DNA of 54,457 nucleotides, counting the filler, from Sluysia triapertura (taxonomy: Eukaryota), in the NCBI GenBank assembly GCA_046118255.1. It is 4 parts of 4 records of this genome, joined end to end, with 100 filler letters (N's around TTAATTAATTAA, not from the genome) between each part and the next. Parts side by side here need not be neighbours in the genome. Positions count along the whole stretch, not along the records: positions 1 to 12,243 come from JBJNIA010115641.1; positions 12,344 to 26,957 come from JBJNIA010253414.1; positions 27,058 to 41,961 come from JBJNIA010244654.1; positions 42,062 to 54,457 come from JBJNIA010099214.1. One strand, 5' to 3'. Below, piece after piece: positions 6,310 through 54,457 of this stretch. Position numbers and translations under genes: made by a program. Positions within the stretch are counted from its first letter, which is position 1; every line of letters begins with the position of its first letter. The notes beneath the pieces are model-generated. The model saw nothing but the letters and a program-made list of their open reading frames with translations, searched no databases and had not been told where the DNA came from.

Positions 6310-6430
6310 ATAAATTGCCACCAATGTTATGAAAATTTAATTTACAATTGTCATCAATTGACAGTTTTCGTTTGACACCAGTGTAGTGTTGACCAAGTGC
6401 TTTTCGTCAATTTTGTTGGCCAACCAACGA
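6310..6430 (+). repeat. Diverged copy of the paired inverted-repeat module
   Basis: Follows an ATT tract; shares TTAATTTACAA and TGTCA with the 10022 copy; has the IR GTTGACCAA...TTGGCCAAC; precedes a CCCH remnant. Confidence 0.4.
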
Positions 6431-6618
6431 GATATACAGTTTAGTATAATCTCAATTATTTGTGTACATGAGAACATATATACATACAAGTATATAATGC
6501 GAAATTTAATGTACTGACTCAATAAATAATTATTTTGAATGTAGTAATCAAACAAGCTGACGATTCAATTTATAGAACATCAACTAAGTATGTAAAACAT
6601 AATCACGATTTAGATCAT

Positions 6619-6699
6619 TATAAAACCGCACAATGTATGCACGGTATGTCGAATTTAGGCCTATGTCTTAGATATGGTCAACATTGCTCATAAGCCCAT
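6619..6699 (+). pseudogene. CCCH zinc-finger remnant (Cx9Cx6Cx3H), copy A
   Basis: YKTAQC-MHGMSNLGL-C-LRYGQH-C-S*A-H, with a TIS11-like YKT..C lead-in and one stop. Confidence 0.75.
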
Positions 6700-6819
6700 A
6701 ACGTCTCATTCCTCATAGGACAACAACGATTTCAATGCTAACCTGGATCGTATGTACAATCTTTTATCCTCATTACAAGCAAAATCAAGCACATCAAACT
6801 CTTCGATTAGTGAATGCAT

Positions 6820-7700
6820 TGTGGTGGCCAACCTATTTTCTTAATAAATTTTATTAAAAATTTACATTACATATTCTCAAAACACTCACCAAAAATATCC
6901 CTTTTACATAAGCTTTTGTTAACATAACATACACCATCAAAATTTACAAATTACATTCAAAAATTAACATAAAACAATAATAAAGTAAATCAGCACATCT
7001 TACATAAAACCATACTCTTAAACATTTTTACGTTTCCATATTTATCTTTTTTACATCCACTAAAAACATCTTCATCCGTTAAAATCAATTAAACCCACAA
7101 TCTCATAACAGTCAAACCACAAATATATTCAAAACCATCAATTTACATTAAAAAATTCATCTAAAATACTTTATTCTTCATTTCTTAACAATTCAAGAAC
7201 AATCACGTTCGAAATTAACTAACAGACATCTTCAAAGCAATCCAAACATTATAAATTCACGATATTTATCATTAAATCCTGACATCCAAACATGACTTTC
7301 TTTCAAAACACCAATGCACATTTACCACTCATTTTAACATTTATACTATCCTAAAGTACTTAAGTCATAACCATTTACACTTTAATGCATCTGTTAGACT
7401 TCGTAAAATAGACTGACTAGGGATCGAACCCGGGACTTTCGATGCGCAGTGCGAATGCTCTACCACTGAGCTATCAGCCCCGTCTAACAATTTCATTTTC
7501 AATATATTCAATTATACTACTTGGCACTTTTAGGCCTTTTACCCCAACACATCTTCAGTATAGGGAAGTCCCATAAAATTCATCACACTTCATCATATAA
7601 AAACATTTCATATATACACAGATCATTAAACAAACTACTAAACTCATTCAAAAAACAAACATAATCATTGCACATAATTATCATGAACTACTGCTATTAT
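6820..7700 (+). repeat. TG-initiated C/A-skewed leader of a dispersed element family
   Basis: Starts TGTGGTGGCCAACCTATTTTCTTAATAAATTTTATTAAAAA. Related ends on the minus strand at 27334 (TGTAGTGGTCAAC), 54285 (TGTGGTGACCAACCC) and ~48035 (AACCTATT..TTAACAAATTTTATTAAAAA), each followed by G-poor, C/A-rich sequence. Confidence 0.55.
7392..7549 (-). mobile_element. 158-bp TGTT...AACA element carrying a tRNA-Cys-derived Pol III unit (copy 2)
   Basis: CATC duplicated at 7388-7391 and 7550-7553. Minus strand 7481-7410 reads GGGGCTGATAGCTCAGTGGTAGAGCATTCGCACTGCGCATCGAAAGTCCCGGGTTCGATCCCTAGTCAGTCT, then ATTTT. Internal IR TGTTAGAC (7392-7399) / GTCTAACA (7482-7489). Confidence 0.9.
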
Positions 7701-8244
7701 TACTACAATTCAAATCGTATTAAACAATATATATAATGATTATTGTCATTATTGTTATATAATATTATTATCAAATAATAACTTTTATAATAAATTTTAC
7801 ATCAACATTAACAATGCCATTATTAATAAACATAATAACCACGTTATTGTTATCATTATTATTTCTTTTGTCCTTATTATCAATCTCTCTTCTTATTCTT
7901 TTATTTTTTCCAGTTTATACATTTATATATTTATGTATATATTTATTTTCGTACCGAGATTTACCATGCAAATCATTGATAAACCAGACTGCTCAGACTA
8001 ATCCACCCAAAACAAGTAATCACGTCTCAAATCGTTACTCGTGCGTCTTGAGTAAAATACTGCAAGGCCAACTATTTAATCATAATGTTTGCTGTCGAAT
8101 GAATCATTTATCAACAACATACGCCACATCGATGATGATTACGACAACATATTTATACCATCTTTTACACAAGATTACTAAGATTAATTCTAATTCGACA
8201 AATCAGAAATGCTGAAATTAATTTGAACCCTTCGAGCTACCGAC

Positions 8245-8490
8245 ACCGAAATGAGAAGTGTATCAGTTACTCTGAAGTCACTGGAATTAAGTGAATCCAA
8301 GGCTTCTGTGTGTGAAGAATTGTTAGAAATACAATTTCAGCAGTTGTCGGAGGACTTGGAAGTCGCAAATAAACGTTTAGAAATTGAAGAAAGTTGCTAC
8401 ACTATCTATACTAAAGAATTGGAACAGTTGGAAGATGGTACTGACTTAGAAAACGAAAAGGATAATCAATTGAAATTTGAATTAGACAGA
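8245..8490 (+). pseudogene. Tropomyosin C-terminal fragment, intronless and divergent
   Basis: EMRSVSVTLKSLELSESKASVCEELLEIQFQQLSEDLEVANKRLEIEES...KELEQLED...EK...ELD follows the tropomyosin pattern EL..V..NLKSLE.SE.KA..RE..YE.QI..L...L..A..RAE.AE......KE...LED.L..EK......ELD. Confidence 0.7.
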
Positions 8491-10021
8491 ATTCCAAGCA
8501 ATTTAACTTTTATTATAATCGTTTAAGAAAATCAAACATTTAATAAAATTATAACTTGATAAATAAAATATCGAAATTCCAAATTATTATTTTAATATTT
8601 TTTATACATACCATACGTGTGTTAAACACTTTATTTAATTTTGAAGTTCATTTTATTTAAATTTTGAATACTTTGTTATATTTTTAATATTTTTTTTCAA
8701 CGTTTCTTTTAGTTAGGTTTATCAATTTTTTGTATTACGCTTTATGAGAAATTTGAGCTACTTATTACAATAAATAGATTAAATTTGATAGTATTATCAA
8801 TAATACTTGACAAAATTTCAAGCTTATCGTTTATTGTAAGTATAGTTTTTGTAGCAGTTGTTATTATTGCTGGTTCTATATAAATTTTATGCATGTTAAA
8901 AATATTACTAAAAATAATATAAAAATTAATTACAAATTAAAAAGAAATCAATATTTACGATGTTTCTCATAGTCATGGTTAATTGTAGTTAACCATGACT
9001 TTAAATCACGTAATGTTTATATCGTTGTTATTTATTGCCTAATGTATATAATATATAATACGCCGGCCGAAAATTTGATATGCAACAATTGCAATGAACC
9101 ATCCAAACCTGACAATGTCACTACCGTCTCTAATTGTACGAGCTGTAGCAAGCGAATCATTGAATCTGTTCTGATGTAAAACGTTTTCGCATATCATCAC
9201 ATGGAGAGTATCCCATTGTCCGTCCTTCAGGGATTCTGGAAGATTTAAAACTGTCGAATGTGGCTACATTTCTGACTGAGGATTATTTTCTAAATCGTAA
9301 CTCCAGTGTTGAAAGCGTTTTTATATGTCTTTCTTCTATTTTATCTTTTTTTAATAAAAAAGGTTTTATTTTGTTGGTGTTAAAATATTATTCTTTAAAG
9401 GCCCTAAGCCTAGTTTGTTAATTCATAAATTTAATAGTTTTTAAATGTTTTTAAAATTAAACGTTAATTGTTGCTTTTTAATTAAATGTTTCATATTTCA
9501 CATTCAAAATATAAAACTAAATATTCATAAATATAATTCAGTAACATTTTTCAAGTAAAAGCGCCCCACATTCAGCTTGAAACATTATTTCATTCAGAAC
9601 ATTGAGGTATATTCTAACATCTACATAAAGCATTCATATTCTTTCAAAATATTTAACACCTAAAATTATTTTCACTTGAAATGAGCAGACAACATTAAAA
9701 TTTACACCGAAACGCCTTACGCATTATCCTACAACATCAGCGTCACTATTACACTTTGAAGTCTTATCCAGGACACTTAACATTAGGCTGAAGTATCATT
9801 AAGATTGGTAAATATATAAGAAAAATTAAAGATATAAGAAAAGATTGTGTTTCCTCTTTACTTTTAACTTTTAATGTTTAGAAATTAAAGAATAGAAAGA
9901 AAATTCATGTTTAATTTAGAGAACAAATAATTTATGTAATTTAATGATAATAATAATATTATATTATTATTATCATTACCATTTTTTAGTTTTATTTCTA
10001 ATTAAATTAATAAATTATTCA

Positions 10022-10188
10022 GTAACTACCACTACCAGTGGGCACTGCATTAATTTACAAAGATAGTCAATGTCACCACTGATAGTGGTTCACATATCAA
10101 TCATCCAGCTTTTGATCTTTATTATTGGTCGTCCAACCAGATTTAGTCTCATTACTATTTTTATATTCCTCTGGTTGGACGGCCAATC
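10022..10188 (+). repeat. Paired inverted-repeat module (IR-A + IR-B)
   Basis: ACCACTACCAGTGG (10028-41) / CCACTGATAGTGGT (10076-89); ATTGGTCGTCCAACCAGA (10124-41) / TCTGGTTGGACGGCCAAT (10170-87), 28-nt spacer. Homologous to 36977-37142 and 47108-47422. Confidence 0.9.
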
Positions 10189-10281
10189 AGGTTGATAATT
10201 GTAATAAAATTATAATTATTTTAAAATTTTTTATTATTATTGCAAAAGGAGAATAACATTAGAAATAGCTATTTTACATCA

Positions 10282-10810
10282 ATGGATATTTCTATGTCTT
10301 CATAGAGTACTGGTTATGATTTTTCTGAAAGTCATGATTTCCATTTAAAATCATTATTAAACCATTATTCCATTCAAGATGATAATTACAAATTTAATGA
10401 TAATAAAGGTTACGACTGCAAAGTTGAAGATTATAAACATGATGATTATAAAGAGTATAATGGCATATCTAACAATTCTAAACTTAATGATTACAAAGTT
10501 GATGATTATAATTGCAAAACTAACGAATATAAAGATGATAATTATCAAACTAACAATGATGAAGATGATGATAGCGAAGTTAACAATAATAAAGATAATG
10601 CTTACGAACTAAATGTTTATAAAATTAATGATTACAAACTTAGCGATGATAAAAATAATCATTACGAATTTAACGATTATAAAAATGCTAATTTATCTGC
10701 AACTAGACAAATGTGATTTCCATTTGTATATTCTCTACCGACAACAATGGATATGCCTAATGCACGGAATATACTGCCGCTACGCACATTCCGTTTACGA
10801 ATTAGAATTT
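10282..10810 (+). pseudogene. Decayed ORF: N/D/Y/K-rich repeats followed by CCCH remnant (copy B)
   Basis: ATG at 10282 with an early stop. The frame from 10378 to ~10715 is open and repeats NDYK-like units. C-LMHGIY-C-RYA-H-SVYEL starts at 10754. Confidence 0.6.
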
Positions 10811-11599
10811 AACAAAGAAAGCGAAACAAATTAAAATCACCTTAAACACAGAATTGTATAATTACTCGAGAGTATTGGAGTTACCTCGTCCAATTCGACT
10901 GGCAATAGTTATAATGATCAATAACCATAAAGTAAACAATTTTTACATTCACATTCTTAGTATTATGAATTCTTATTTTTTAGATGCTGAAACAGATAAA
11001 AGAAAAGTCATACATAGGAGCCAAAATTTTAAATTAAAAATCATAACGAATACATTTTTATGCAATTTTCGTCGTCTTTTCATTATTCAAAAGTTAATTG
11101 TACAATTTAATTTTCAAAATTCAAAATAAATACTTCTAATCTTGTTTAATAATATTATTAGTAAATGTAAAACAAAATACAAATTAAATTTTAATTTTGA
11201 TATAAAAATAAATAAACATTATAAGTCACACATGCATAAGTCTTTTTAATAACGATGATCGCGATTCAGACGATCCAAATACAAATGACAATACGAACCT
11301 TTGAGGTAAATCTCTTTATTTTGAAATTTTTATTTAATCACCATAGGATTATCATTCAACGCATAGTTTATGGCTTACTAAAACATAAGTCAATTATCAT
11401 TTTTATCCTATAAATTAATGTACAATAATGTGTTGATCAATCTTGTTTATGTCATAATAAATAAACATATTAGATTTCACTTTGCGAATTTTTATTCTAA
11501 CCAAACAGTAGAGAGAATAAATAAAGTTGATAAATTATTAAATTTATTAACAAATTAATCGATAATATAATATTTAATAATGTAACATTTTGTAATCTC

Positions 11600-11822
11600 C
11601 CATATATGTGTGTTTCGAGTGTAATCGAATCATATGGCTTTAAATACCACATATATGCTGATGACGTGCAAATATATACTGAATTTGAAATGAACAACAT
11701 AGAAAATACAATTTAAAGAACAGAAGAACTAATATTTGAATTGATAAAATGGCTTGGAGATAAATACAATTGAAAATCAATGAAGATAAGACAGAATTTA
11801 TAATTATCAGTAATAAAAGTAG
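11600..11822 (+). mobile_element. L2/CR1-type LINE RT fragment, interrupted by an LTR
   Basis: YGFKYHIYADDVQIY (YADD at 11654), then W..(fs)..LKINEDKTEFIII. Confidence 0.8.
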
Positions 11823-12243
11823 TGTTAGGTCTGCCTTCACGACCCTTTAAGTTAACATAAAATGTTTTAAAATTATTTATAAGTGTCAAAAAACACCTAA
11901 AAAATATTAATTTTCCAAAAAAGAAATTTTATTTTCCAAAAGAAAAAGTTATTTTCTAAAAAAGAAAATAAAATTTCTAAAATAGAAATTAAGTTTCTAA
12001 AAATAGATTAGAAGCTTCTAGAATGTTCTAGAATATATTAGAACATTCCATCGACTTTCATTGGATGATGACTAGTATATAAATTAGCATCTTACAATGA
12101 AAATCGCCATTTAATTTTTCATTAAAATCGTCGCCATCTTACTTCAGCTCATTTGGTTTTCTACGCTTTTTGGAATTTTACATTCATTTGGACGCGAATT
12201 CAAATCTATTTTCACAAATCCATGCAAGGGTAAAATATTTTAT
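11823..12243 (+). mobile_element. HSE-containing LTR, copy 1 (truncated by contig end)
   Basis: Starts TGTTAGGTCTGCCTTCACGACCCT like the 51795 copy; the HSE-CCAAT-TATA core (~12010-12112) is near-identical to 51990-52092. Confidence 0.8.
12009..12083 (+). promoter_or_regulatory. Heat-shock element, inverted CCAAT and TATA box
   Basis: aGAAg cTTCt aGAAt gTTCt aGAAt aTATt aGAAc aTTCc = 7 of 8 alternating nGAAn pentamers; ATTGG at ~12060; TATATAAA at ~12076. Confidence 0.8.
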
Positions 12244-12343: not shown

Positions 12344-12699
12344 TGGTTCATTTGTAAATCGTATTTTATTTTGCTGTCTTGCTTTATTTAACTGATTTTG
12401 TCTTTTATTTCTAATAAATTATGTATTCTGCTTAAATTATTTCATGTTATTTTCAATACAGTTATTATTATAAATCTTCTGTCATTGTTAAAATGTACAT
12501 ATAATGTATATCATTTATTTAAAATTATTTTGATTATTCGAAAATTTATTCATTCGTCCATCTCTATGAGATACGAATTATAGGCTCATTGTTATTGTAC
12601 TAAATTGGTTCGTAATTCCTGTTATACATTCTATATTTGACGTTCTCTGTAACAAGTCTAAATTGTTAAATAGCATCAAAAGTTGTGTAATTATTCGTT

Positions 12700-12945
12700 C
12701 TTTACACCCATTAATAAATTTTTCAGTAATTAATTCAAATTTTTGTTTATATATAAAACTTGGGTAAGCCTTATTTGCTAATTGTTTTAAATCAAATAAA
12801 AATTGTGTGATCGTTTCTTTATTACCTTATGTCATGTTGAAGTTTTTAAAATTAACTATTTTAGAATCTTTAGGGGACATGTGATTCATAAAATCACTAA
12901 TTAAATTTTGCGACGTATTTTTATTGTCATCTGGAATATTCAAAT
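12700..12945 (-). mobile_element. Gypsy-type gag remnant
   Basis: Minus strand: NIPDDNKNTSQNLISDFMNHMSP...FNMT*GNKETITQFLFDLKQLANKAYP..(fs)..LITEKFINGC, matching the gag pattern Q...ES...F...L..LA..AYP...L...F..G. Confidence 0.65.
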
Positions 12946-14793
12946 AAGTGAAGTGCTCCGATTATACTGGATTACCGTCAAGGGAAGGAGAAAAGATCTA
13001 TTGACTCGATAATCAATTCTTTTTTCTTGTAATTCTTGACATATAATGTTAAATTTGAAATTATAAACTTATTTTCCGATTAAAACGTCAAAATGAAAAT
13101 TTACTGTGGCATCAAAATTTGTGCTGTGTCTTTAACCAAAATTATCAATGATAACTCAACAATTGGATTAACACGTAATCTAAATATATTTAAAATATCA
13201 CAAAAATGACAAATAATTGATTATTCTTTAATATCAATATACAAATTGAAAGTTATAAATCAATAAAAGACAAATCCAGAGGTGATACGAAAAATGTTGA
13301 CTCCCGCATTAAACTAAAATAAAATAATAAGAATGTGGATCACTAACTGCAATAATATTAGTACTCCTTATAAGGCTTCAAGGAGTAAATCTTCAAGCAC
13401 AATTTTTATCACAAATGTGTTGAGGCAGCTTTATTTTGTATTTCTTTTGATATTTCTTTTGTCAAGATATTGTTGTTCAAATTTTATTTCGAAAATACGA
13501 TAACTTATACAGTAGTTGGGTTATTGCTAAGAAGATTAAAAATGGGAAAATATAAGTAATTACTTCGTATTATTCATTCTTTTGAGTCTGTTTTAAGCCG
13601 ACCAATTTTAATAATTAAATTTCGACCATAATTTCTGTCGGCTTCCAATTTATTATCTCCTGCAATCTCATTATCTTTTTTAACATAATATAACCAGAAT
13701 TAAATATTATGCTTTTCAAATAATACATCAACTTAAAATAAAGATAAAAGTAATTACAAAACTATATTTATTTTCCATAAGAATTTTTAATGCAAACGAC
13801 ATACGTTAACCTTACTTTGCATATCGATTTCAATAACATGTCAGAATTGGTATCTTAGCGAGCATCAATTTAATATATACTTTAATTGTATTACAACATT
13901 TAAATTTAATTTTAGATTATAAAAATAATCAAAATAACTAATCTTTACGTTATCTGTGTCGGCGAGTTTCTTAATATTTCAATACTAGGAATACTAATAA
14001 AATTCAACATTATTTTACAGAAATTATTAAATTAAAGAATTTCTATTTAAATTAATCAATAAATGCGCTTTATATTTTAACAAGAAAAGGTACTGTTTTC
14101 GTACCTTTATTTCTTTTATTTTGTATATACATTTCATCAACGCAATTTGTCGTAGTGTTTTATCTTATGTTCTCATTAATTCTTATACTATAAGCTAAAA
14201 GTCCTTATATTCACTTCATCTTTAATCAAACCCAACAGTATGAATAATAATCTTATGCTGTAAAAATTGAGCCATCGCATTATTATTATTAATTATAATT
14301 ATTATCAACTTTATTTTGATATTATTATTTTCATAATTACCTTTTAATATTTTTGCAGACATTTTAAAATAATGTTTGATCATTTTCGGTCCTGACATCC
14401 TAATTATTTGAATTTGTTTGATTAAGTGGTAGAAAAAATTAGTGCATTAATCAATATAGTTCTTAGTTATTAGGTATCATAATCATGGTTCCTACTTTCA
14501 TCAACTTATTGTAACTAAAAATTCTGATACAAATTTTAAAATAATCTTTCTTAGTGGATTATCTTGATATGATACTGCAAGTATTCTTACCAAGTTAGAA
14601 CCTACTTACAAAAGATTGTTGTCTGGAGCTGAACTCGGCTGATTAGAAACGGTTTACGTCACTAGTCAACGACGGTGTAATCAGGCTTATAACGTGGCGA
14701 AGTAATACGCTTAACAAAGGAACTCCTAACAAAAATTTATATTAACTTGTATCAAAAACAAAATATTAGTAACAATACAAATTTAATAAATTG

Positions 14794-15097
14794 AGACAGC
14801 CTTTGTACGGTCTGTCAAATAGATAAATTATTTTTAAAAAATTGAATCGGCCTTTTTACGGTCTGATTATAGTTAATGAATGATTTTAGTTTAGAGAACA
14901 AATCGTAAGCAAAAGAATGTATATTAGATACAATGATGTATATACAATGACGTGCTATTATAAAAAAGGTTATACAATTCAACAAAAAATCGTTAAACAA
15001 TTATAATAATAGTAATAATAATAATACGGATTTTTCCTTAGCCTGAATTAGATTTTAAAATTAAAGTTAAGACAGCCTTTTTACGGTCTGTCAAATA
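14794..15097. repeat. Three copies of a short GACAGCC-TTTTTAC-GGTCTGTC hairpin
   Basis: AGACAGCCTTTGTACGGTCTGTCAAATA (14794), AATCGGCCTTTTTACGGTCTGATT (~14845), AGACAGCCTTTTTACGGTCTGTCAAATA (15070). Confidence 0.8.
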
Positions 15098-18000
15098 AAG
15101 ATATATATTAAGTCTGATTTTAAATCCTATCAATACAATTAGGATACTAAAAACTTAATGATTACAAAGTTACTTTTGCATGGAAACTGTTTTTGTCTAA
15201 TCCTTTTCTAAGATTTTAGATTCCTTATTTTCTTGTGTCTTGTAAGCTAAAAGTGTTTGTTATTTATATTAAAATTACTTACCTCCATATTTGTTTATTT
15301 TTTAATTTATTAAAACAATTTATTTCCTCTTTGGTTTAATAAAACAAAAGAATTTTCATATTATTAATTTATTTTATTTTATAATATTAATAATTATTTT
15401 ATAAATTATCAACATCATTATAATAAAAATAATTTTATAAAAACCAAAAATAAATAAATTAAATATTCAGATCATAAATAAATAAATTAAATATCCAAAT
15501 TATAAATATCAAGTTATCAATATAAATCAAATATCGTAATTTGCCAATTAAATATCACAATTAAGTCAATTGTTATTTTCAAGTCAAATATCATACACCA
15601 ATTGACACCAACACCAACAATACTGAATATGATTTGGTAATTTCGCGTTTACGTTTCCTTGGAAAGAAATATAATTGTAGATGGATTGAAAAAAGGTTAT
15701 TATTGCTTCATTTACGATTATGAGAATCATACAAAAATCTAATTAAAATTTGATTATAATACAATTATAAATATAAAATTATCTTATGTTGTTAACACTT
15801 TAATTATTATGCTCATTCGTAGAAATAGCGTGTCTGACAGTCACTAATCAAGTGTAATATGCAACAATGTATAAATAATAAATATTGGCACAACTATCTG
15901 GAACTCAATATACTTAATAAAAAGTATTAGTTTTGTAGGTAGATCATCTTTTATTAGTTGTAAAGTTTTTTCGGTGTTGATCTAATGTGTGATTCACGTG
16001 CAGAGTCTGATCTACAAAAAATAGTTTTAATAATTTTGTGATCTAAATTTAAAAAGTAATATTTCTATAAATGCATGAAATTTCAAATAAATGTTTAGGA
16101 TCACTGGAAACATGATTTATAGTGAAAGTATATTGTAATGCTACACTTAACATAGAACGTACTATAAACACATAGTTGTGCTTTCTGATAAGGGTTAGTC
16201 TGATTTTTTTATCTCGTCTTATCTAAAAATTTTCAAAACTGCATTTCATTTATTTGTCTTTCTCGTAGGTTGGAACGATAGCGGTACGTAATAAGCAAAT
16301 TTTATAGTCAAGATATTCATAATACGTTATATACGTTATATGTAAAAGATGGTGTTAGTGCTTCTGAAATCTCCTACAATTATAAAAATTAATTAAAACT
16401 TTAATTAAAAATAAACAATAATTAAGATAATTTTAAAATAAATAAAAAACAATTAAAAGACAATTAAACAAATTACAGAATAAACAAAATTCAATTAAAC
16501 AAATAGGAAATTCATTAAATTAAATTTATTATTTATTTTTGCAAGCAATAAAAAAGTAGTATATAAATTTTGCACAAGACAAAAACAAATCGGACAAAAT
16601 AACTATCAATTCCATACGAGTTATTATTAGTTCCATATGATTTGGCAATTATCATATTATTGTTGAAACAATACTCCATCTTTCTGTATTTGTAAGTTTA
16701 TTATTGATAAGGTTATTCTACTTTAGGGTAGAACCAAAATCAGCGTAAATTTTTAATTATTATCTACGATTAGTTTTAACTAAGTATAAAATTTATATTT
16801 GCAATAAATTATTTTATTGTAATAACACATTATTTTATTATTGAATTTAATTTGTTTTTGGTAATAAACCTTACCATCTTAGTCATTTTGATTTAAACTA
16901 GGTAAAAAAAGTTTTGAAAATAATTTTTAAAAGGTTTTGGTCTATCTGTACATACGTATCCCATTAGGTATAAAACGTATAGTATAGACGAACCCATTCT
17001 GATATTTTACTTAAATTAAGAAAATATTAATAGATATCAGAAAATAATCCAAAATCAAACATTAGACTATTACATATGATCTTTCAAAATCATAATGCAT
17101 TAAATTTGGTCGAAAAGTCTTTATAATTTTCTTGAAACATTTTTAAATGCTTTCTCAGTATCAAATGTAGTTAAATATTAGCAATTATGTGATAGATAGA
17201 TTGAATATCTGGTCGTTTCTAGATAAAAATAATAAATTACTGATTGATGTTCTATTAAAACTGAACATTTTAAGTAATTTTATTATATTTTATTTTAATA
17301 GGGACGTTTTAAAATGTAATTCAATTTTTAAACGTGCAGATCAAATAAATAATCAAAATTTTTTAATTAAATATTACGTAGTTTTTAAAGCAACTTTAAT
17401 ATTAATAAATACTTTTATCAACATAAATATTAATATATAATAAAGTATAAAATTTAAGCAAATGTATCTAATTTAAATTTATCATGGAATATCTATATTC
17501 TAATAAATCTTAATAAAAATTATATTTATGTATTATATTTATATATTTGAATTTTTCGTGCCTTATTTTGTATTTTCCAGTACGGCAAACCTAAAATATA
17601 TAATTACTGTGTATATTATAAAACTCAACAGTTATAATTACTATTTTATGGGTTCGCCTGTAATCCTGTGATTAATATCCCCATGGAAGACACGGTTTGC
17701 TGTCAGTTTACTACGTAAAGCGAGTCTTACAACGAAGCAAAAATATAAGTTTACTCGCTAAAAATTATGTAAATTACAAAATGATTGTTTATCTATTTTT
17801 TTTCGCTATGAACAAAACTAAGTTTTCTTAACAATATTAATTTGACTGTTACTCAATTTCAGTTTAATATTTTAATGACAAATGAAAAAATGTAAATCAT
17901 GACTAATTTTTTATTAAACAACCAATGTTTAATATAATATAGAAATATAAACACCAATTTTAATTCTGAAACTATGATTTAGACTTTTTATCGATTTTAA

Positions 18001-41887: not shown

Positions 41888-41961
41888 CAGTCGGACCCCG
41901 TATAACGCGACCCCCAATTACGCGATTTCGTTATCAATATATGTTTGTTAATTCTTTTTTC
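41888..41961 (+). mobile_element. End of a pogo/Tigger-like element
   Basis: TA|CAGTCGGACCCCGTATAACGCG with a repeated ACGCG site; runs into the contig end. Confidence 0.6.
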
Positions 41962-42716: not shown

Positions 42717-43025
42717 GTATGTTTGTGGGTGCACTATGTGCAGTAACTGGGGTACTAACTATTTCGCTTCCTGTTCCGGTAATTGTGTCGAATTTTTCTA
42801 TGTTTTATTCGCACACGCAAGCTCGCAGCAAGTTGCCTAAGAAACGAAGGCGAGTGTTACCAGTTGAAGCCGTGCGTCCCAAATTAAAGTTGGCGGCTGC
42901 AGCAACAGCCAATCACAGTCGACTTGTTATTAGTCACAGTCCTCAGAGATTGTCCAATCATCAAACGGCCTTGGGTGTTACAGAAAGGCTTTTGTCCAAT
43001 TACAAGAGTCCTGCTATCATAACTG
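42717..43025 (+). CDS. Shaw: Shaw/Kv3 voltage-gated K+ channel exon (S6 and proximal C-terminus)
   Basis: [51 protein letters not shown]. tgcag acceptor; either a G|gttaga donor after 43025 or read-through to the TAG ending at 43030. Confidence 0.92.
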
Positions 43026-44165: not shown

Positions 44166-44280
44166 CATCATTATCATCATATTTTTATTCTTCATCATCA
44201 TTGTCATCATAATCACCATCATCATCATTATCATCATATTTTTAGTCTTCATCATCATTGTCATCATCATCACTATCACC
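44166..44280. repeat. CAT-rich 57-bp tandem duplication
   Basis: CATCATTATCATCATATTTTTA.TCTTCATCATCATTGTCATCAT at 44166 and 44223. Confidence 0.85.
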
Positions 44281-45617
44281 ACTTTCATATCTTTTTGATC
44301 TTATTATTACTTAAACTTACCCTGATCAAAGAATGAGTTATGTTATGAGTTCGCTTACGATTCTAGTCTTACAAGAAGTGGCTTGGTATGATTTTAAAAG
44401 AATCTATTTCTTTCATGCAAGTTCCAAGGTTATTTTGAGGAATGCATTGAAAATTAAAGAATGGTTCCGCCTTAGGCGAGTTTAATAAAATTTAACTTAC
44501 ATAATAATAGGATTGTTTTCCGCTTTATAGCGAGATTATTAATAAAAAGTTAAACTGAACCGTTGAAAAGCTTCATTTTATAGTTCGGTATTATGCACGA
44601 AATGTTTAGAATGTTTTTAATGTGTTGAAGCCGTGTAATTTAGATTTTGATAGTACTTTCGATTCAAATCAAAGGGATCGATAAAATGTAAATCACAAAT
44701 TTAAGACAAAAAATTATATTATGATAACCTAACAGAAATTTAAGACAACGTAACTTATTTAGAAGCAATAATTAAAAAAATTTAATAAATTAAATGTGCA
44801 GTTTACTGAATTATTATTATTAATTTTAATCGGATTTTGAAAGATGAATGGAAACAAATACAAAACTAACGCGTACCGAAGTAAAAATGATCTCTGTAGA
44901 AATAGCCGATGAAAAAGTCTTTTGTTTTTTCTTCGGATATATCGATATTAGAATCTCTTTTATTAATTTACTTCTAGACAATTGCTTTCTAACTTTAAGA
45001 AAACAACTCAGAAATTTTATACTTACCAATAGTTGATTTTCTGTGGCTGTTGATACTCCTTCTTCAAAATTTATTTTATGACTAATAAAAAGAACATTAA
45101 AATTTGTCTAAAATATCAATAAGAATTTTCTTTTAACCTATTAATGTTTTTATTTTTGAATAATTTATAAATAATTTAAAATAATTTATTTTATGATATT
45201 TTATTAATGTGATTATGAGTTGATTGCTTTTAGAAGATTTTATTTGATTTTAAAACTTGGTAGTGTAAAATTACTTTTTATTAAATGTAAGCAAAATGAT
45301 AAAATGGGAAGTTTGCAGACAGTAAATGAGAATCTGTAGATAAAATAATATTTTATTTATTAAATCGAATTTAAAAAATTCAATGTTTATAAAGTTCGGT
45401 TTGTATATATTGTTTTCTGACAGCCACGTTTCACTATCTGAAAAAGAATCAAAAGTCAAGTATCTTTAATGTAATCGTAAAAAATATTTACCCTATTATT
45501 ACCATTAGTACTGTTGTTATCAAGCATTTCCGGAGTTGGTACACCGATGCTTACGAATAAATCTGAGAGTCTAACGAGATGATCCGTTCGGAAAGCACAG
45601 TTGACTTTATAGTCCAG

Positions 45618-45712
45618 CAATTGATTAACAGTGTGTACATGCACGCATTTAGTTCCGAAGTTTGTACATTCGCATCTTAGTAAACTGTATAAGGACAAAG
45701 TACTGGTTTATT
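45618..45712 (-). pseudogene. CCCH remnant (copy D) downstream of the primase fragment
   Basis: KPVLCPY..(1-nt loss)..EC-TNFGTK-C-VHV-H-TVNQL; first Cys to His spans 65 nt vs 66 nt in copy C. Confidence 0.7.
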
Positions 45713-46319
45713 TGCGACGAACTGAATTAACAGTAACCGATCAAACGGGCATTAAATTCTTGAACATATTATTTGCGTTTTGTTCATTAGGGGAATCGGT
45801 ATAATGATATACTGAGCACTTCTCCAAGCCATTTTTATCTTTATTGTCCTTGTTTAACTCAGATGAGTTAATTGGTGGGGCTTTATTTGGCATTCACTTT
45901 ACTCTTAAATTCATTGTCAGAATCTCAAAAAGTTTAATCTTTTCTATATTCAAGACACAATTTTATTTAGCTATTGCAGCGGCTGCAAAAACTCTCTTAT
46001 ATAGTTTAGAGTAATCATGAATATACTAGTAACTATTGGAGGGAACTTCAAATTTTGATTTAGATCACTCATATTAATACGACTCATTATATCTCTTCTT
46101 ATTCGAAAACTCAGCATCTTTTGAATCATCTCAAATTTATCTTTACTATTTTCAATTAATTCTGTACGAGTTCGCATCATGAATTCATAAAGGGCATCTT
46201 CTTTTAAATTTTCGGGTAATCTTTTAACTTCTAAAGTTGAATGACATTGAGAAAATATTCCAATAGAGTTGTTAAAGCTTAATCTAGTTTTGTTACTGAC
46301 ACTGGTGATGAGAATGAAT

Positions 46320-47007
46320 TAGGTAAAATATCCAAAATATATTTGATTCTTCCAGGATTTTCTAGCATTTTTTAAAAGCAAATCTTTTAAAATTATTTGT
46401 AAATATCGCTATACTAGCTCTTAACATCTTTCCATTTATTATTTATTTTAATTCTATTTTGCCTTGTTTATAACGACTTATAAAACCAACCAGATTACTA
46501 CACTAATTGACATAATAACTTTACCACATCATCAAAAGCCTCTTCTTCCAGAAAACACCCACCAAATATGTTTGAAATCAAAGTCTTCAGTTAGAATACG
46601 ATGCAGTTATTCCTGCAGTTATCAAAGTCTAACTATTTTTTTTACAAACATCTGCCTTTGAGCAACAATTTCGAAAATCATCATAATCTTTTATGTGAAT
46701 AGCAAACACTAAATCTTTAGAAACCGGCTGAAGTAAATAAGACAAATGATTTATTGGTATTGGGAGGCATGATAAAAATGATACCAATGTCAATTTTATA
46801 CGGATTCTTTTTAATCAACTCGGTTTTTAATTCATTTGCATTACGAAACGACAAATAACATACATAAATATTATCCTTCAATGTAAAACTAAATTCTCGT
46901 TTAGCAAAATTCTCCTCATTATTTTTAGATAACCATTTAAAAAATAATTGATATGGAAATACATTAACATAAATATTTCTTAAATTTGCTTTAAATTCTA
47001 ATGTCAT
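46320..47007 (-). pseudogene. PRIM1: DNA primase small (catalytic) subunit, intronless decayed copy of the N-terminal part
   Basis: FPYQLFFKWL...FAKREFSFTLKDNIY.Y.SF....LK.E...KNPYKIDIG, then across stops and frameshifts KDLVF.I..DYDDFRNCCSKADVC and L.EDF.FKH.WWVFSGRRG. Confidence 0.92.
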
Positions 47008-47107
47008 ATATATATATATATATATATTGTCTTTAAAAACATTTTTGGTTTCTAAATATGCTATTAATAAAAATGAATTTAATAGGTTAATTACTATTCT
47101 GACTGTC

Positions 47108-47422
47108 CAGATTGGTTGTTCAACCAGAGTGATGCAAATAATGAAAAGAGCTACTCTGGTTGGTCAACCATTAATACACTGAAAAATGTCTCACATGGAG
47201 AAGCCAACCATTATCTATTATGACAAGAATTTATACATGAAATGATTAAGTGTGTAATGAACTGTCATCAGTCGACAGTTAGTAAAAGAACACCTTATTG
47301 ATTTCGACTGATGGTAGGTTAACAGCAATTAAATTTTTGTGCGCTATAAATACAGCTACCATCAGTGGTGACAATAATTGTAATTGTGAATTAATGGTGT
47401 CTCCACTGGTAGTGGTAGTTAC
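47108..47422 (-). repeat. Paired inverted-repeat module with an extra IR pair
   Basis: TGGTTGTTCAACCAGAGT (47113-30) / ACTCTGGTTGGTCAACCA (47153-70); CATCAGTCGA (47266-75) / TCGACTGATG (47304-13), 28-nt spacer; CCATCAGTGGTGACA / TGTCTCCACTGGTAG (~47359-47412). Lies ~100 bp upstream of the primase ATG. Confidence 0.9.
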
Positions 47423-49042
47423 AAAGTTGGTCGATAGAAATTCTTTAAATAAAAATAATAAAAATAAAAATAATAATAATAATAATAATATTATTATTGA
47501 AAATTTAATTCGCTTAAATCTTTTGATTTGTCTTATTAATAACACGATCTTCCTTAATATGTATATTTCTTTTTCTTAACATATTTATAATATCTTTGTT
47601 TGCTGTAATGTTAGTTCTTTTTCCATTACTATGTCTTAAATTGATTTTATAATGTAACTTTAATATTTTTCGATGATCTATATGATTGAATGTTGAAAAA
47701 TTATGAACTTGAAATGTTTTGGATTAGTTTGGTGTATGTGTATTAATGATTTTGGATGTTAGTATGGTATTGATATAAGATTGTGAACTTAAAATGTATT
47801 GAAAAGAGAGTGGTTTAGTGAATGTAAAGAAGATAAATTATAGTCTAGATTTTGGTACATTCTAAAAATTATGCGATATTGAAAAATATGATTTTGATTA
47901 TGTTGAAATGGAACTATGTATAAAAATGTTTTTAATGCGTTTTAAAAATATACATTGTAGACTTTGAAAGTGAATATGGTTTTGTTGTATTCAAAAGAAA
48001 ATTTTTTAATAAAATTTGTTAAAAGTAATAGGTTAAATGATAAATATATGAAATTAAATTAAATTTTAATCTAAGAAGATTTACGCAATATGAAAAGGGC
48101 AGTTGAGTAACAATCCAGATTATAAATTTAAAGAATGCATGGAATGAAACTGGTACTAAGGCAGTGAGTGAATATTTATAGTAATGTTTGAGGTAACAAA
48201 ATTGTTAAAAATAATAAATTGTTAAATCGAAGAAATGTTTCTTTTCAATAATTCAAACAAAACCACGTAAATTTAAATATCGTTCAAACGTACAGGAGCC
48301 GTATACAGCGATGTTAGTTTTAAAATAAGTAATGTTTATAGTGCAAAAATTGACTGGAACATCGGTCTTTAAACATCGGTCAAATTTTGCCTAAGTGGCC
48401 AACGCTGATATTTCAGCTCTAGGTCAGAACAATGATTAGAAATTATTTTATTAGAAAATGATTTAAAATTATTTTGTAAATAAAATCTTTATGTAAATAA
48501 AATAAACTATTCAACATATTAATTTTGTGAAATAAAATATTAATAAAATAAAATAATAAATTTAAAATTAAATATTGAATTTAATATATTAAAAAATTGT
48601 AATAAATTTAAATTTAAATTTTAAGTATGAATAAATTTAATAAATTAGAAAAGTTTTGTTTTATCGGATCAATTTTTGCCTTATGGCTTTATATTGAAAA
48701 ATTAATATTATTTTTTATATTAACTGAGTATTGCCTATTTCACAAGTGAACAATAAGTTTTAACTTAAAATTAATCACATACGCAATTACACCCACATTA
48801 CAAATTTGTAATGATTATTGAACGCTATTTAACCGAATAAGTAGTAATACCTTCTACTAGTTATAAAAAATCCTAATAATACGTCCTACAGAAATAAATG
48901 TAAATCATGCTTATTAGGCAGACTGACTCTCGGATTATTTTGTAAGTATAAAATTATGTTGAGATTAAGCTTTAATAAAGAAAAACACTTGCAATAATTT
49001 AGAAATTTTGCTATAATATTTTAAATTATTTTAATTAATTAG

Positions 49043-49701
49043 GTAGTTCTAGTATTTGGAGGCTGGACAGATGGCGAAGGTCCTCGGGCAGCTGCCCAAG
49101 TATACGATCCACGAGCTGATAATTGGACGTTATGGACTGAATTTTCTACAGATATTAATTTACTTGGTGAAATACCAAGACGTGTTTATGCCGGTTGTGT
49201 GTTGGTTAATAAACGAGTTTATTTGATTGGTGGATTTGATGGAACAAATGCACTAAAATCAACGTTATGTTATGACTTCGATATTGATTCTGGTTGGTAT
49301 GAAATCAGTTGTATGTATGAAAAACGATACTACGTAAGTGTAGCATATTACAATAAATTCATTTATGCACTTGGTGGACATAATGGTGAAAATCAGGGTC
49401 GCTTAGATACAGCAGAAAGATTTAATTTAGAACAAAATTTATGGCATCCAATTGCATCTATGCGTCGTGTACGTTCTGATGCTTCAGCTGCTGAATTGCG
49501 AGGTAAAATTTACATTTGTGGTGGTTTTGAAGGTCGTCATTATCATGATTCAGCGGAATACTATGATCCTGATATCAATCAATGGACACTAGTAAATCGT
49601 ATGTCGTCACCTAGAGGAGGCGTGAGCTTGGTTCGACATGATAACTATATATACGCAATAGGGGGAAACGATGGACATAGTCGATTAAGATCTATTGAGC
49701 G
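49043..49701 (+). CDS. Kelch-repeat exon, KLHL10-like
   Basis: aattag acceptor, CG|gttagt donor; VLVFGGW...YDPRADNW then GG-type kelch repeats; MYEKRYYVSV and RSDASA motifs resemble KLHL10. Confidence 0.88.
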
Positions 49702-51734
49702 GTTAGTTTTTATATTGTTGAAAAATCTCAGATAAGTTAGAATTATTTTGTTACTCTTTTTGTGAAGTAACAGTTCGAGTAGTCAGAGTAGTGTATAGTG
49801 GTGTTAAAATGTAGAAAATTTTAGTGCATTCGCAGTCTTCAACATAACTTAATTCATGTTGGTAATTTAATTTATCATAGTCTGAAGTGTAATACAAGTT
49901 CATTAAGTCTTTACGTGTCATTCAGATTTTAAATCAGTTTTAAATTGATACCAAATTAATCACACACTTTCAATTATTAATTAAAACAAATTATTTTTTT
50001 CTATTAGTGAATAAATAATAAATAAATACTGTATATCTTTTGAAATTTTGAGATTGTCGTTTATTATGAACTTCTTCAACATAAATCTTATAATTTTAAA
50101 ATGACAAAAGAAAATATTAATTAATTGAATTCTTCATTATCATCTTTATAAGTCAGAATTTGCTACAATGGATAGCAAAATAGGCAATTGTATACAGCAA
50201 AACAATCCAATAAATTATTATTGTAAAATCTTGGGAGTAAAGGAATGTTGACATTAGAACTTTATTTAAATTTTGTTTATGAATTTGAACGTTGATATAA
50301 TTTTTATGGAATATTTTATATGAATTATTATTGAATTATATGGATTATATTTATTTTTATGAGATTTATAAAATTACTTTATGGAATATTTAAAGGTATG
50401 ATTTTTATTATAAATTCTTAGTATAATTTTAAATTTTATTACACAGTGAATTAACGTGATTAATAGAAAATTGAATTAAATTATTTTTAAATTAAAATCT
50501 TAAAAATTAAATTCGTTTAAAATGCAACCAAGGTCAATCAAATCAAATAACACAATTTTGTTCACCAACTCGCAATAAATGTACACATTAATACACATAT
50601 TTTGACAATTGCAAATTTATTATCAGCTCCCTCTCTTTAATAGTTGTTACAAGTCTCTTGGAGCCAATTCGATTTTCTATTGTTTGACAAATTAATTTTT
50701 TTTGATTTAAATATTTTATTTTATTTTGATTTAAAGGATGACGTTAGTTTAATTATTTTAAGATTTGATATATCTATATCGCACGTAAAATCTATTAATC
50801 TATTAAAATCTTTTAAATCATTTTAGGATCCAACGAAAAATATTTCAATAAAATCCTTTATATTATTCATTAACTCAAAGAATTAATTATTGTAATTCTT
50901 ATTACTAGCCATTTGTACACTTCTAAGCAAACGTTTCTAAATAAATCATTCATAGTTAATTTTTGTTTACAATTTACATAGTTTTACATAAAATTTATCG
51001 CTTCGAAAAGATTTCCCAAAGTTAGAATTTAAATCTAACAAAGCAAAATAAATTTATAGATTACATTTCAAGGAATCAAGGAAAAATCACCCAATTAACA
51101 TTATTATTACTTTTGATAAAATAATTCAATTAATATTTCTGACTTACCTCCAGACAGTTAAAAGTATAAATTAGGCATTTTTTGAGCATCATTTGAGACT
51201 TTTTGATTTACAAAATCCAACAGCTGGCCCTACCGGTAAGCCCAGTACGTTGGTGAACTCACATAAAACTATCTCTTTATTCTATTATTTTACTTTAAAT
51301 TACTCACTTTTACACAGGTACATCAAAATTTATTTAGGCAATAATAACAATAATTTAATATGATTGTAGAAAATATAATAATGAAAAAAATAGTAAACCA
51401 AGTTTGCTTGCGGTTTTCCACATTTCAATAGCTTCAAATTTTATAAAGCAATAAGGATGTCCATTATATTTATCTAAACCTTGGTCATAATTGATAAATT
51501 CTGATGCATGTCTATAGCTATTACCAATCCATTTATATTTTTCTTTGAAAATTTTATTATGTTCTTTGCAAATGTATTATTATATTTATCATTTTTATAC
51601 CACTAGAATCCACTGTTATTATTACTATAACAAGAATAGAACATAAGTATAATAAAAATAAATTTCCACATAAATCCTTGTTTGTAAAACAATTTATTGA
51701 TTTTTTCATAATTTTTATTTTTATAATTTCAGAT

Positions 51735-53057
51735 GATATCGTGGCAACAGCGGTTGGGGTAATAACTAAATAAATACTTTCAGGATGAGAAAATTGTTAG
51801 GTTGCCATCACAACCCTACGAAATAATTTTAAGATGTCATAATGACACCTTAAAATTATTTAATACTATTTAAAATTACAAAAAATCATTCAAAACTATA
51901 GAAAATGTTTAAAATGATTTATTAATCCTTAAAATTATTTTAAAAAAGTATTTTCCAAAAAAAGAAAATTAGCTTCTATAAATAGCAGAGAAGCTTCTAG
52001 AATGTTCTAGAATATTTTAGAACATTCCATCGATTTTCATTGGATGCTGATTAGTATATAAACTTGCATCAGTACAATGAAAATCGCCATTTTTATAATC
52101 TTTATTAGTCAGTCGCTAAAAAATGAAAAATTTATCACGTGACGCAGTTATTGGCATTCGTAAAAAAGCAGTTCGAAATAAATCAACAGTAAACGCCATT
52201 CAAATCTACACTGGTTAAATATTCAAAGGATATTGAAAAAATTATTCATTCGGGTTTTTTGATCAGTTACAATCCATGCTAAAAGTAATTTGTTTATGTT
52301 AGGATTGGTATTAGTTTTTCTTAAGGAAAGTAATATCACAAAATACACTTAAAATCATATTCTGTTAATCTTAAGGTTCCCGATATATTGAGGGGTAAAA
52401 TCCAGTGTAAATTAATAACCAGTTTTTATTAAAGACTCAAAAGAGTTTTAATATTAAAATTCGCAATTAATTTTTAACTCTTGATTCTTTTATATCTTGT
52501 CTATAATTTAGTTGTTCATTTTTTATTTAATTGTTTTTGAAATAAAAATTTTTATTAGTCGATTGTGAATTTAATTAAATTAAATAGACCCTCTAATTAT
52601 AAGATTATAATTTTAAGTTACTGTAGTTATTTTAACTTATATTGTTACAGAAGTGCCTTCTTTACAACGTAAGAAGCTTACCGTAACCGGACCCTGCTCA
52701 ATTTTCTATTTTTCCTTAGGTTTAGACTTAAGTATCAATAAAAACCACAGCAAAATCTAGGATCAAATTCCATGATTCTACACCCTTCATCCGATATTTT
52801 TCTGAAAATTTCAAGTACGCGTTCAGCACTAGTTGTTTATTTTCAACTTCATGTTCATCACTTTTAAAAGTAACAAAATAATCTAATCCATTTTTCTTAT
52901 ATTTTGGCTGAACAGAACCACATCCAATTCTAACGCTTATAAGTTGATTTTGTCCATCTCAATCTTTATTTCCTTCCGTAACGGGAGTTGGAGCACAACT
53001 GTTTTTCTTTTTATATAATTCATAAATTAATTCCAACCGTTTTCCTGGCAGAATATT
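51735..53057 (-). pseudogene. RPB1: RNA polymerase II largest-subunit fragment (clamp region), split by a solo LTR
   Basis: KRLELIYELYKKKNSC...GCGSVQPKYKK(fs)GLDYFVTFK...(fs)SAERVLEIFRKISDEGCRIMEFDPRF. Removing 51795-52752 and one AAAT restores an in-frame DPRFSHPES, followed by an LP.P-like segment. Confidence 0.8.
51795..52752 (+). mobile_element. HSE-containing solo LTR, copy 3 (958 bp)
   Basis: TGTTAGG...AAAACCACAGCA with AAAT duplicated (51791-94, 52753-56); HSE at ~51990-52029, ATTGG, TATATAAA at ~52055. Confidence 0.9.
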
Positions 53058-53191
53058 TCAAAATGTACTTTTAGTAGTAGTACTAGTAAAATGGTTATCA
53101 TTCTACGTGAATAAGATGTTTTTAACTTCAGTATTCTAATTTATTATTTTACTTTAACCAGAAATTTTGAAAATATAGTTACTTTCCAATA

Positions 53192-53193
<2 letters not shown>

Positions 53194-53250
<57 letters not shown>
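53194..53250. repeat. (AAT)n microsatellite
   Basis: About 19 units seen directly. Confidence 0.95.
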
Positions 53251-53899
53251 GCAGTAATAATGGTAATAGTAATCGTAATAGTAGTAACTTGTGTTATCGT
53301 TCTTCGTGAATAAGATATTCAATAATGTCAACACCAGAAAGTTGAAGAAAGAGAGTTAGAAAGAAAGTTAAAAGCAATAAAATCTTGATAACAACACATA
53401 CATAAATATATACATAAACATACAATTATACAAACAAGAGGATAATATAAAAATTAATTGTGAAAATAACAAAGTAATATCGACAACAATGTCGTTTATA
53501 TTTTTGTCATGTCTTATTTTAGGTTTATAAGAAATAGATGTCTTAATTAACAAAATTGTAGTACTTGATTTATTACTTGATTTATAAAATTAAATTTTAA
53601 ATTTATATTATAATTATGCTTTATTAATACTTTATTTACTAAAATCAGATTAATTTCCTTAAATATAAAGTAAAAACAAAAATAGCTAGTTAATAGATTA
53701 ATGTTTCTAAATTTATGATCTAAAAATATTAAAATTTTGCCTAATTTACATAATTCCTGGATGTACCCCCAAGTTGATTTCCTTAGAATCATAAAAGAAT
53801 ATAAATAAAAGTTTTGATTTATCATAAAACATATAAATGTAAATGTAGTATTAACTTTTAAGTCATTATGGAACACAGGATCAAATAATGTTAAATTAG

Positions 53900-54014
53900 A
53901 TATAATGGAATTGAGTCGATCGTAATGATCATTACAGTTTATTGGTGGATTAAAAACATATCGGGAACATTCGCCAGTCTGTGTGGTTCCATATAAACTC
54001 ATAACGTTCTTGTA
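53900..54014 (-). pseudogene. Truncated CCCH remnant (copy E)
   Basis: YKNVM-S(agt, one change from tgt)-LYGTTQTGE-C-SRY keeps the x9 spacing. Downstream DRLNSIISNL resembles DRMYNLLSSL after copy A and VRLSDLFVSI after copy D. Confidence 0.5.
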
Positions 54015-54457
54015 TTTCTCTTCATTATCGTATATACGCGAATATGTACACAAAAGCTTGCTGCTGGTATGTAAGAACAATGAATAGACGGTTCTTGATT
54101 TTAACTTGGACGTATTCTCCACTATTGAAGTTGTTTGATGATTTTCAGTATTGAATGTGAATCTGATGCTAGTTGATTTTATGTTTAGAATGTTTGGAAA
54201 TGTTAAGAATTATGAAATGTTCTGAATGGAGATTTTATTGTGTATTATTGAAATAAATCTTTAACATATTGGGTTGGTCACCACAAACAATAATAGAATT
54301 AAATTTATGATAGGTGTATTATGTACTTTAGTACGTTAATATTAATATTGCGATATTATTACAAGAATTATTAAATGAAAGTACTGCTGGGTTCTTTTTT
54401 AACCTAAAAGCTTCCCTACAGCAAAATAATTAATATTTATGAGTCCGTTTACAGTAT

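Follow-up and report, generated by a model that had tools for sequence, protein, structure and literature searches.

Does the 54,457-base stretch of Sluysia triapertura DNA analysed here (the window) hold relics of a mobile repeat family, and does that family exchange the gene that it carries? The original prediction described a leader, an inverted-repeat module, variable cargo and a CCCH finger in constant order. The window has a GC content of about 25% and consists of four pieces (1-12243, 12344-26957, 27058-41961 and 42062-54457), and all structure was derived from this window alone. On three of the four pieces (piece 2 has no unit) there is a dispersed repeat family with several co-oriented parts and a constant frame; it is real but decayed. 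The high copy number suggested in the original prediction would rest on these three pieces alone. Its anatomy is a leader starting with TG, a motif, an ATT tract, two or three hairpins of about 60 nucleotides (nt), a frame derived from PRIM1 (the primase small subunit), a finger of the Unkempt zinc finger 3 (ZnF3) type, a tail, and a CA end with a 5-bp duplication. The fixed order, a PRIM1 block common to two units, conserved pairing and intronless pieces establish the family, and the ends are suggestive of an integrase of the long terminal repeat (LTR) type. We give about an even chance to the reading that the units are relics of a single family of chimeric retroelements, non-autonomous and moved by an LTR-type integrase.

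The hairpin module

A search for hairpins with a stem of at least 11 bp, at least 5 GC pairs and a loop of 15-45 nt found seven strong hairpins in the window, and all seven fall in three modules (10028-10187, 36984-37135 and 47266-47408). The same search in six Markov-resampled windows gave 0, 1, 0, 0, 0 and 0 hairpins. The predicted paired module on three pieces is borne out by this count. The modules and the sequences ahead of them are listed below; the units are named by position (10k, 37k and 47k), and the hairpins are termed HP1, HP1b and HP2.

9837-10021, plus strand: motif AAGA..GATTGTGTT (pattern match; part-duplicated near 9897), conserved spacer and ATT tract
10028-10187, no strand assigned: hairpin module, HP1 10028-10089 and HP2 10124-10187
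36984-37265, minus strand: motif, ATT tract and module, HP1 37075-37135 and HP2 36984-37035
47098-47555, minus strand: motif, ATT tract and three hairpins, HP1 about 47354-47418, HP1b 47266-47313 and HP2 about 47110-47171

Compared with shuffles, the three modules fold with z values of -6.0, -3.4 and -6.0. There are two hairpins in each of the 10k and 37k modules and three in the 47k module, where HP1b is a paralogue of HP1 and the two can cross-pair. The module copies are 62-76% identical to each other. Raw identity in gapped alignments is uninformative here, with a background of 63-71%. The pairing of HP1 is retained (96.7% of 61 cells paired, three pairs with two-sided changes), and this level was reached by 24 of 500 shuffles in a lenient control with four related rows. 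The hairpins are stable as DNA, at -9 to -17 kcal/mol. An Rfam search of the module gave no match at E<=1. Pol III transcription was considered and rejected: U-runs are missing on the opposite strand in two of the three modules, a number that by our estimate is within chance.

The motif AAGA..GATYGTGTT followed by an ATT tract had been predicted at three places, and it is seen at 9837, 37265 (minus) and 47555 (minus). The pattern is post hoc, and with three mismatches allowed its frequency is at chance level. The 37k motif-module stretch sits in an intron-like gap between two plus-strand host exons. A diverged module had also been proposed ahead of 6430 on the plus strand. This sequence, at 6310, folds no better than shuffles (z -1.3) and has one weak HP1-model match (E 0.1) at the correct place and strand; at best it may be a module remnant. 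The hairpin pattern gave five matches in viral contigs, and the two inspected are coding sequences without module context. In metagenome contigs it gave none in one search and one in another; that match (L007) is coding and fits neither hairpin model.

The CCCH finger and its tail

Four fingers with the spacing C-x9-C-x6-C-x3-H are present, at 6634, about 10727, 35956 (minus) and about 45697 (minus).

6120-6700, plus strand: ATT tract, faint HP1 remnant (6309-6373) and the best-preserved Unkempt ZnF3 piece (finger 6634-6699), truncated by the start of the span E1 described below
10727-11040, plus strand: frameshifted Unkempt-type finger with conserved tail (cross-match, tail alignment)
35801-35956, minus strand: in-frame Unkempt-type finger (35956-35891) with tail (Pfam, cross-match)
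45135-45700, minus strand: frameshifted finger (about 45697-45633) with tail, which aligns with E1 up to the E1 end (z 5.2)

Each finger has at least one cross-match that exceeds the best of 20 shuffled windows. The Pfam sweep covered frames of at least 42 residues, and 102 of the 312 frames were left out beforehand as AT-rich or low-complexity. The 6k copy matches PF25427 (Unkempt-type, UNK-like CCCH) with an E value of 6.9e-10 and 39.1 bits against a gathering cut-off of 31.1, and residues 81-124 of PDB 5elh with E 7e-4. The 36k finger lies just under the same cut-off (E 7.2e-7, 29.5 bits), and the frameshifted 10k and 45k fingers have no Pfam match. A co-oriented finger lies downstream of all three clear modules, at 0.54, 1.03 and 1.41 kb; the chance of such a finger within 1.5 kb for every clear module is roughly estimated at 2 in 10,000. 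The predicted order of module and finger stands for these three modules, whereas two further fingers, near 8050 and 54000, were a resemblance by eye and are not above shuffled controls.

According to the tail alignments, the 10k and 45k post-finger tails are related (z 5.7, 0 of 200 shuffles; maximum 1.9 in 38 random pairs), although with fixed tiles the 45k tail ranks only 5 of 1746. For the 36k tail the signal is marginal (z 2.6), and for the 6k, 8k and 54k tails it is not significant. Leave-one-out DNA hidden Markov models (HMMs) recovered neither the left-out fingers nor the left-out leaders. Protein searches with the finger recovered 0 of 6 candidates, and a 31-position profile retrieved 61 generic CCCH proteins; the family tail occurs in none of the 13 inspected. 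An Atlas search with the finger gave generic CCCH clusters, and one viral cluster, at 0.85, is a lead only.

The unit middles

The original prediction held that the body between module and finger differs in each unit. The features concerned are these.

46300-47007, minus strand: decayed intronless PRIM1, significant over 46998-46535; the catalytic DxD positions are not aspartate
36290-36600, minus strand: PRIM1-derived block common to the 37k and 47k units, homologous to 46300-46610
10376-10693, plus strand: minisatellite behind the NDYK reading, 15/30-bp units, about 20 copies of 15 bp (TRF)

The predicted PRIM1 sequence at 47007 (minus) is real. Its matches are to small subunits of eukaryotic primases (PDB E 3e-18), the best eukaryotic ones at 42-56%, and residues of about 43-197, some 155 in all, are collinear without introns in 460 bp and three frames. 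By eye the copy probably extends to about 45950. The 37k body, formerly listed as unknown, shares a 310-bp block with it (z 12.8, 0 of 200 shuffles, rank 1 of 1046 tiles, 166 vs 112), and the claimed difference between the two bodies is not confirmed. Overall, the 37k body aligns with the 47k copy at z 5.3, 5.8 and 3.9 (maximum 3.1 for nine control sequences), because this one block drives the signal; three other in-register blocks are not significant (z 0.5, -0.1 and 1.6). Over its first 360 bp, the 37k middle does not align with the PRIM1 start (z 0.5). The best match of a PRIM1 profile in the 37k unit is collinear at positions 191-221 and is weak alone, with 2 of 30 shuffles equal.

The NDYK repeats of the 10k unit had been read as a captured gene and are instead a 15/30-bp tandem array. 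The array perhaps grew from the pre-finger motif, to which it has a weak DNA link (37 of 1000 shuffles); the test at the protein level was negative (278 of 1000). No PRIM1 signal was found in the 10k middle. Besides PRIM1, no identifiable gene was found inside any module-finger frame with Pfam and PHROGs, and PHROGs gave two weak matches only. The constant frame is thus supported while swapping is mostly not, since the body is PRIM1-derived in two of the three clear units; these two carry the same gene in different states of decay, and the cargo of the third was locally generated.

Leaders and element ends

6820-7700, plus strand: C/A-skewed leader starting TGTGGTGGCCAAC, broken by a tRNA-bearing solo LTR (7392-7549)
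9371-9830, plus strand: second, weaker leader with uncertain start, z 3.4 to the 6820 leader
47600-48200, minus strand: C/A-skewed leader, start not fixed (alignment and tile rank)
27058-27334, minus strand: further leader starting TGTAGTGGTCAAC, truncated by the piece end (rank 2 of 1736 tiles)
6820-11232, plus strand: E1, 4.4-kb span with TG...CA ends and a 5-bp duplication (6815-6819 = 11233-11237)
53490-54285, minus strand: E2, 796-bp unit with leader start, finger-like remnant near 54000, TG...CA ends and a 5-bp duplication (simulations)

A 13-base leader start has three exact matches, at 6820, 27334 (minus) and 54285 (minus); this pattern is also post hoc. The predicted kinship of the C/A-skewed leaders is supported in semi-global alignments against local-composition shuffles, where the 6820 leader gives z 6.4 with 47k, 3.5-4.2 with 54285 and 3.4 with about 9370 (controls at most 1.7). 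Earlier local-alignment and leave-one-out HMM tests mostly missed this likeness, and leader homology is method-dependent. A mitochondrial insert was rejected as the source of the leader: no long frame is present under code 9. A leader had further been predicted ahead of a CCCH finger and RPB1; the leader start is present at 54285, but RPB1 lies outside the duplication-bounded 54285-53490.

E1 contains two leaders, a tropomyosin piece, module, minisatellite, finger and tail. Its duplication alone was reached in 44 of 400 simulations, and together with a gapped 8/8 inverted end in 0 of 400, by a post hoc criterion. The ends of E2 are weak (duplication alone 174 of 400; with a 5/6 inverted end 27 of 400). 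Both testable leader starts (E1 and E2) lead to a CA end with a 5-bp duplication, and none has one of 4 or 6 bp. Candidate ends and target duplications, as sought by the original prediction, are present, post hoc, at E1 and, weakly, at E2, and not at the 37k, 6k and 47k units. The lack of a clear LTR pair in E1 may mean that it is a long solo repeat, or that decay has gone too far.

Two observations on these sequences are added. The 3' tail of the 47k unit at 45061-45370 (minus) is C/A-skewed and ranks 5 of 1736 tiles against the 6990 leader; it could be a decayed terminal direct repeat, or the rank could reflect composition only. Inside E1, a perfect 12-bp inverted repeat with a 6-nt loop (8969-8998) overlaps a CA-TGG junction.

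Other decayed host-gene pieces

8242-8511, plus strand: intronless tropomyosin piece, 90 residues ungapped (Pfam E 9.8e-8; PDB E 0.0075)

Two intronless, decayed pieces are co-oriented with the piece-1 units: cytochrome b5 at 3945-4130 (plus) and an SRSF1-like piece at 4970-5130 (plus, E 0.005). A decayed RPB1 piece at 53050-52740 (minus, E 0.005) covers human residues 137-217 and slightly more; it follows an ATT microsatellite and lies outside E2. All five host pieces (cytochrome b5, SRSF1, tropomyosin, PRIM1 and RPB1) are co-oriented with the nearest unit, and on piece 2, without units, no decayed host piece was found. Of the five, PRIM1 alone lies between a module and a finger. Tropomyosin is within the E1 span and outside the frame, and the other three are outside.

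Proposed origin and rival explanations

TG...CA ends with a duplication of 4-6 bp are the signature of an LTR integrase. The TG...CA ends with 5-bp duplications favour an LTR-type element that took up mRNA, and the alternative already listed in the original prediction, a non-autonomous LTR element capturing mRNA by template switching, is the one preferred here. An LTR-type reverse transcriptase would have switched templates onto host PRIM1 and Unkempt mRNAs. The chimera would have retained cis signals for packaging, copying and integration by an autonomous partner in trans, and may then have multiplied into a family whose content stayed largely the same. The hairpins would be a conserved cis signal working as single-stranded nucleic acid. 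Later divergence would include deletion, hairpin duplication (HP1b), minisatellite growth and occasional uptake (tropomyosin in E1). According to the part of PMC5131818 consulted, template-switch chimeras of two genes do keep spreading as non-autonomous elements. The retained pairing of HP1 and the co-orientation of the five decayed host pieces with their nearest units also speak for this origin.

Several results weigh against this origin. Both LTRs are expected for such chimeras (same part of PMC5131818), and no LTR pair was found: the two leaders of E1 are weakly alike (z 3.4) and the rest of the halves are not (z -0.3 to 1.6). No PBS-like (primer-binding) site lies at the leader end in five scanned stretches. 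There is no polypurine tract at the TG start; a purine run ahead of CGTGTT has no following TG in two of three copies. Pfam gave no reverse transcriptase, integrase or Gag match in or beside the units. Because the LTR-pair and primer-site tests failed or were undecided, the family is not placed in any named family. The ends were tested post hoc, with a weak result at E2; the 37k and 6k units have no end and duplication pair, and at 47k, where the tail aligns with E1 to the E1 end near 45135, the sole duplication candidate is 30 bp out of register and at chance level (1/475). None of 18 PRIM1 matches is from a named flatworm, and the host origin of PRIM1 is putative. As RNA, HP1-type hairpins are 6-7 kcal/mol more stable on the strand opposite the reading frame in 4 of 4 cases, which sits awkwardly with a cis signal carried by the sense genomic RNA; in HP2, folding favours neither strand. 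Opposed mismatches in the seven hairpins with hand-set arms are A.C 11, G.T 3 and other 14, which strand-biased drift could explain.

Routine exchange of the gene that lies between module and finger, within a constant frame, is unlikely in our judgement: the same gene occurs in two of the three clear frames, the third holds a minisatellite, and no second identifiable gene lies within a frame. The 10k middle without PRIM1 signal and the unaligned start of the 37k middle would fit swapping, as would the tropomyosin piece within E1, the clustering of host pieces around the units, and the short AAGAAC..GAT motif with an ATT tract upstream of both the SRSF1 and the RPB1 piece (5 matches; 4 of 100 shuffles). 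Alternatively, the hairpins could be a microRNA-like cluster particular to this lineage and transcribed from the strand opposite the frame. The unit would then be a small-RNA cassette, either encoded by the element or domesticated by the host, with the potential to silence related transcripts or its own. On the opposite strand HP1b is a 23-pair stem with a 9-nt loop, and every one-sided HP1 change gives a G-U pair; the same asymmetry could, however, come from G>A drift on the C/A-skewed strand, and the counted structure was derived on that strand. The size of about 60 nt, the 30-nt spacing and the paralogue duplication resemble those of compact microRNA clusters, whereas the stems are short for Drosha, the loops are 24-34 nt in most copies, HP2 shows no strand preference and Rfam has no match. 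We consider this cluster improbable.

Initiator-plus-origin cassettes are exemplified by RSF1010 RepB'/ssi and PrimPol. A primase, a C-terminal zinc finger and hairpins stable as DNA would have that layout, with the primase fused to a nucleic-acid-binding finger and the single-strand hairpins as priming origins of a self-priming DNA element or virus relic. The PRIM1 sequence is nevertheless of cellular type, the catalytic DxD is absent from the 47k copy, and the copies are broken, so that an in-frame fusion is not demonstrable. No helicase, polymerase or capsid was found, viral scans gave one 25-residue PRIM1 match and zero for the finger, and the units lie among spliced host exons; we regard this origin as quite unlikely. 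The large-DNA-virus alternative of the original prediction is likewise not favoured, with blank hallmark scans and with spliced host exons flanking the units, where a virus would be expected to leave a gene-dense, intronless block. Very unlikely is capture of the Helitron/Helentron or Penelope/Terminon type. The gene pieces form a co-oriented chain with a head-to-tail look in piece 1, the subterminal-style inverted repeats and microsatellite recall Helentrons, and Terminons form such arrays (PMC6431247, in the part consulted). The pieces are however intronless, 5-bp duplications with TG...CA ends occur at two units, no RepHel, GIY-YIG or Penelope-like reverse transcriptase match was found, and no hammerhead core near the modules or Rfam ribozyme was detected. 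The reverse transcriptase, integrase, RepHel or tyrosine recombinase that the original prediction suggested looking for was not found in or beside the units.

If the LTR-type chimera is the true origin, an mRNA chimera has become a long-lived repeat family with a folded cis signal kept over 25-35% divergence, in a lineage of flatworms from which few elements have been described, and the module is a probe for the partner element. It is conceivable, although doubtful, that the family has active members which code for a primase of host origin, fused to an RNA-binding finger of the Unkempt type, use their own hairpin cluster as priming sites or a small-RNA cassette, and still take up mRNA cargo. 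If intact primase-finger copies or hairpin small RNAs exist, they would represent a new route of self-priming or self-regulation for an animal element.

Host and other sequences in the window

Spliced host exons in the window encode Kv channel, kelch, FYVE-PH, UBA and WWE sequences. A single public sequencing run contains the stretch (share 0.65) and is possibly its source; no RNA run containing it was listed. The C-terminal part of the kelch exon is 79-81% identical to fluke proteins and one tapeworm protein, and 55% to a monogenean protein. In a tree of 21 rows the kelch exon falls neither within the supported tapeworm clade nor among the fluke rows, and its sole supported sister is a 92-94% relative. 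By this sequence comparison, the host is a flatworm outside the sampled tapeworm and fluke clades, without a class assignment.

An OATP piece lies at 43-246 (plus). At 42678-42793 (plus) an Rfam K-channel editing model matches over a Shaw-type exon, probably by coding similarity. An unrelated short repeat occurs at 11979-12112, 51958-52092 and 23819-23902, the first two copies being 88% identical. The stretches 2700-3930, 400-1700 and 11640-11800 include a Tc1-like relic and what we take to be two non-LTR reverse transcriptase relics, from motifs seen by eye and with no family match. Two TG...CA elements of about 155 bp (7392-7549 and 4331-4484) have internal tRNA-like sequence and 4-bp target duplications and are Helenus-like solo LTRs. 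According to PMC10886601, animal Helenus elements have 4-bp duplications, and that paper does not mention flatworms or Platyhelminthes; thus this is possibly a new host phylum for Helenus.

Comparison with known systems

DIRS/Ngaro elements have a tyrosine recombinase and split or inverted terminal repeats and make no duplication; no recombinase match was found here, and a link to CCCH fingers is unsupported ('ccch' is absent from the papers listed). Helitrons and Helentrons have RepHel and insert in AT or TT without a duplication. Like Terminons, Helentrons and Pack-type capturers, the family has co-oriented captured pieces of variable length. Unlike them, it has no hammerhead, telomeric cap, RepHel or long inverted termini, and it has intronless pieces and a 5-bp duplication.

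No relative was found in viral or metagenome contigs or in protein libraries, which contain little flatworm DNA and whose blanks are weak. Among the papers listed in the literature search there was no eukaryotic element with a captured PRIM1, nor any such element as a whole; the search covered parts of PMC6431247, PMC10886601 and PMC5131818 and excluded the supplements of the latter two (which may list flatworm families), Repbase and Dfam. The family is apparently undescribed.

The finger is like Unkempt (UNK) ZnF3 (PF25427, PDB 5elh) in its C-x9-C-x6-C-x3-H spacing and YKT lead-in, with 45 residues aligned. Unkempt has six N-terminal fingers and a RING domain, whereas here one finger ends a chimeric frame that is multi-copy and broken. 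Burro/GYPSM1, the giant Gypsy of planarians, is likewise a flatworm LTR-type element with host-derived domains, according to the part of PMC6431247 consulted. Burro is autonomous and larger than 30 kb, with Gag CCHC knuckles, protease, reverse transcriptase, RNase H and integrase (PR-RT-RH-IN), and BIR, BCL2 and TRAF domains; none of these has a Pfam match in or near the units. That part of the account names no primase, CCCH finger or hairpin cluster, and 'CCCH' occurs nowhere in the paper.

The family works like LTR-mediated chimeric retrocopies, as described in the part of PMC5131818 consulted: intronless partial host genes, two genes joined, non-autonomous spread, no poly(A), and, at E1 and weakly at E2, TG...CA ends with a short duplication. 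Such retrocopies would also be expected to show microsimilarity at their junctions and to have an autonomous partner with the same termini. It differs from them in having no recognisable LTR pair or remnants of retrotransposon open reading frames (ORFs), and in presenting a conserved hairpin cluster and a fixed PRIM1 and Unkempt core in a diverged family rather than a young one-off.

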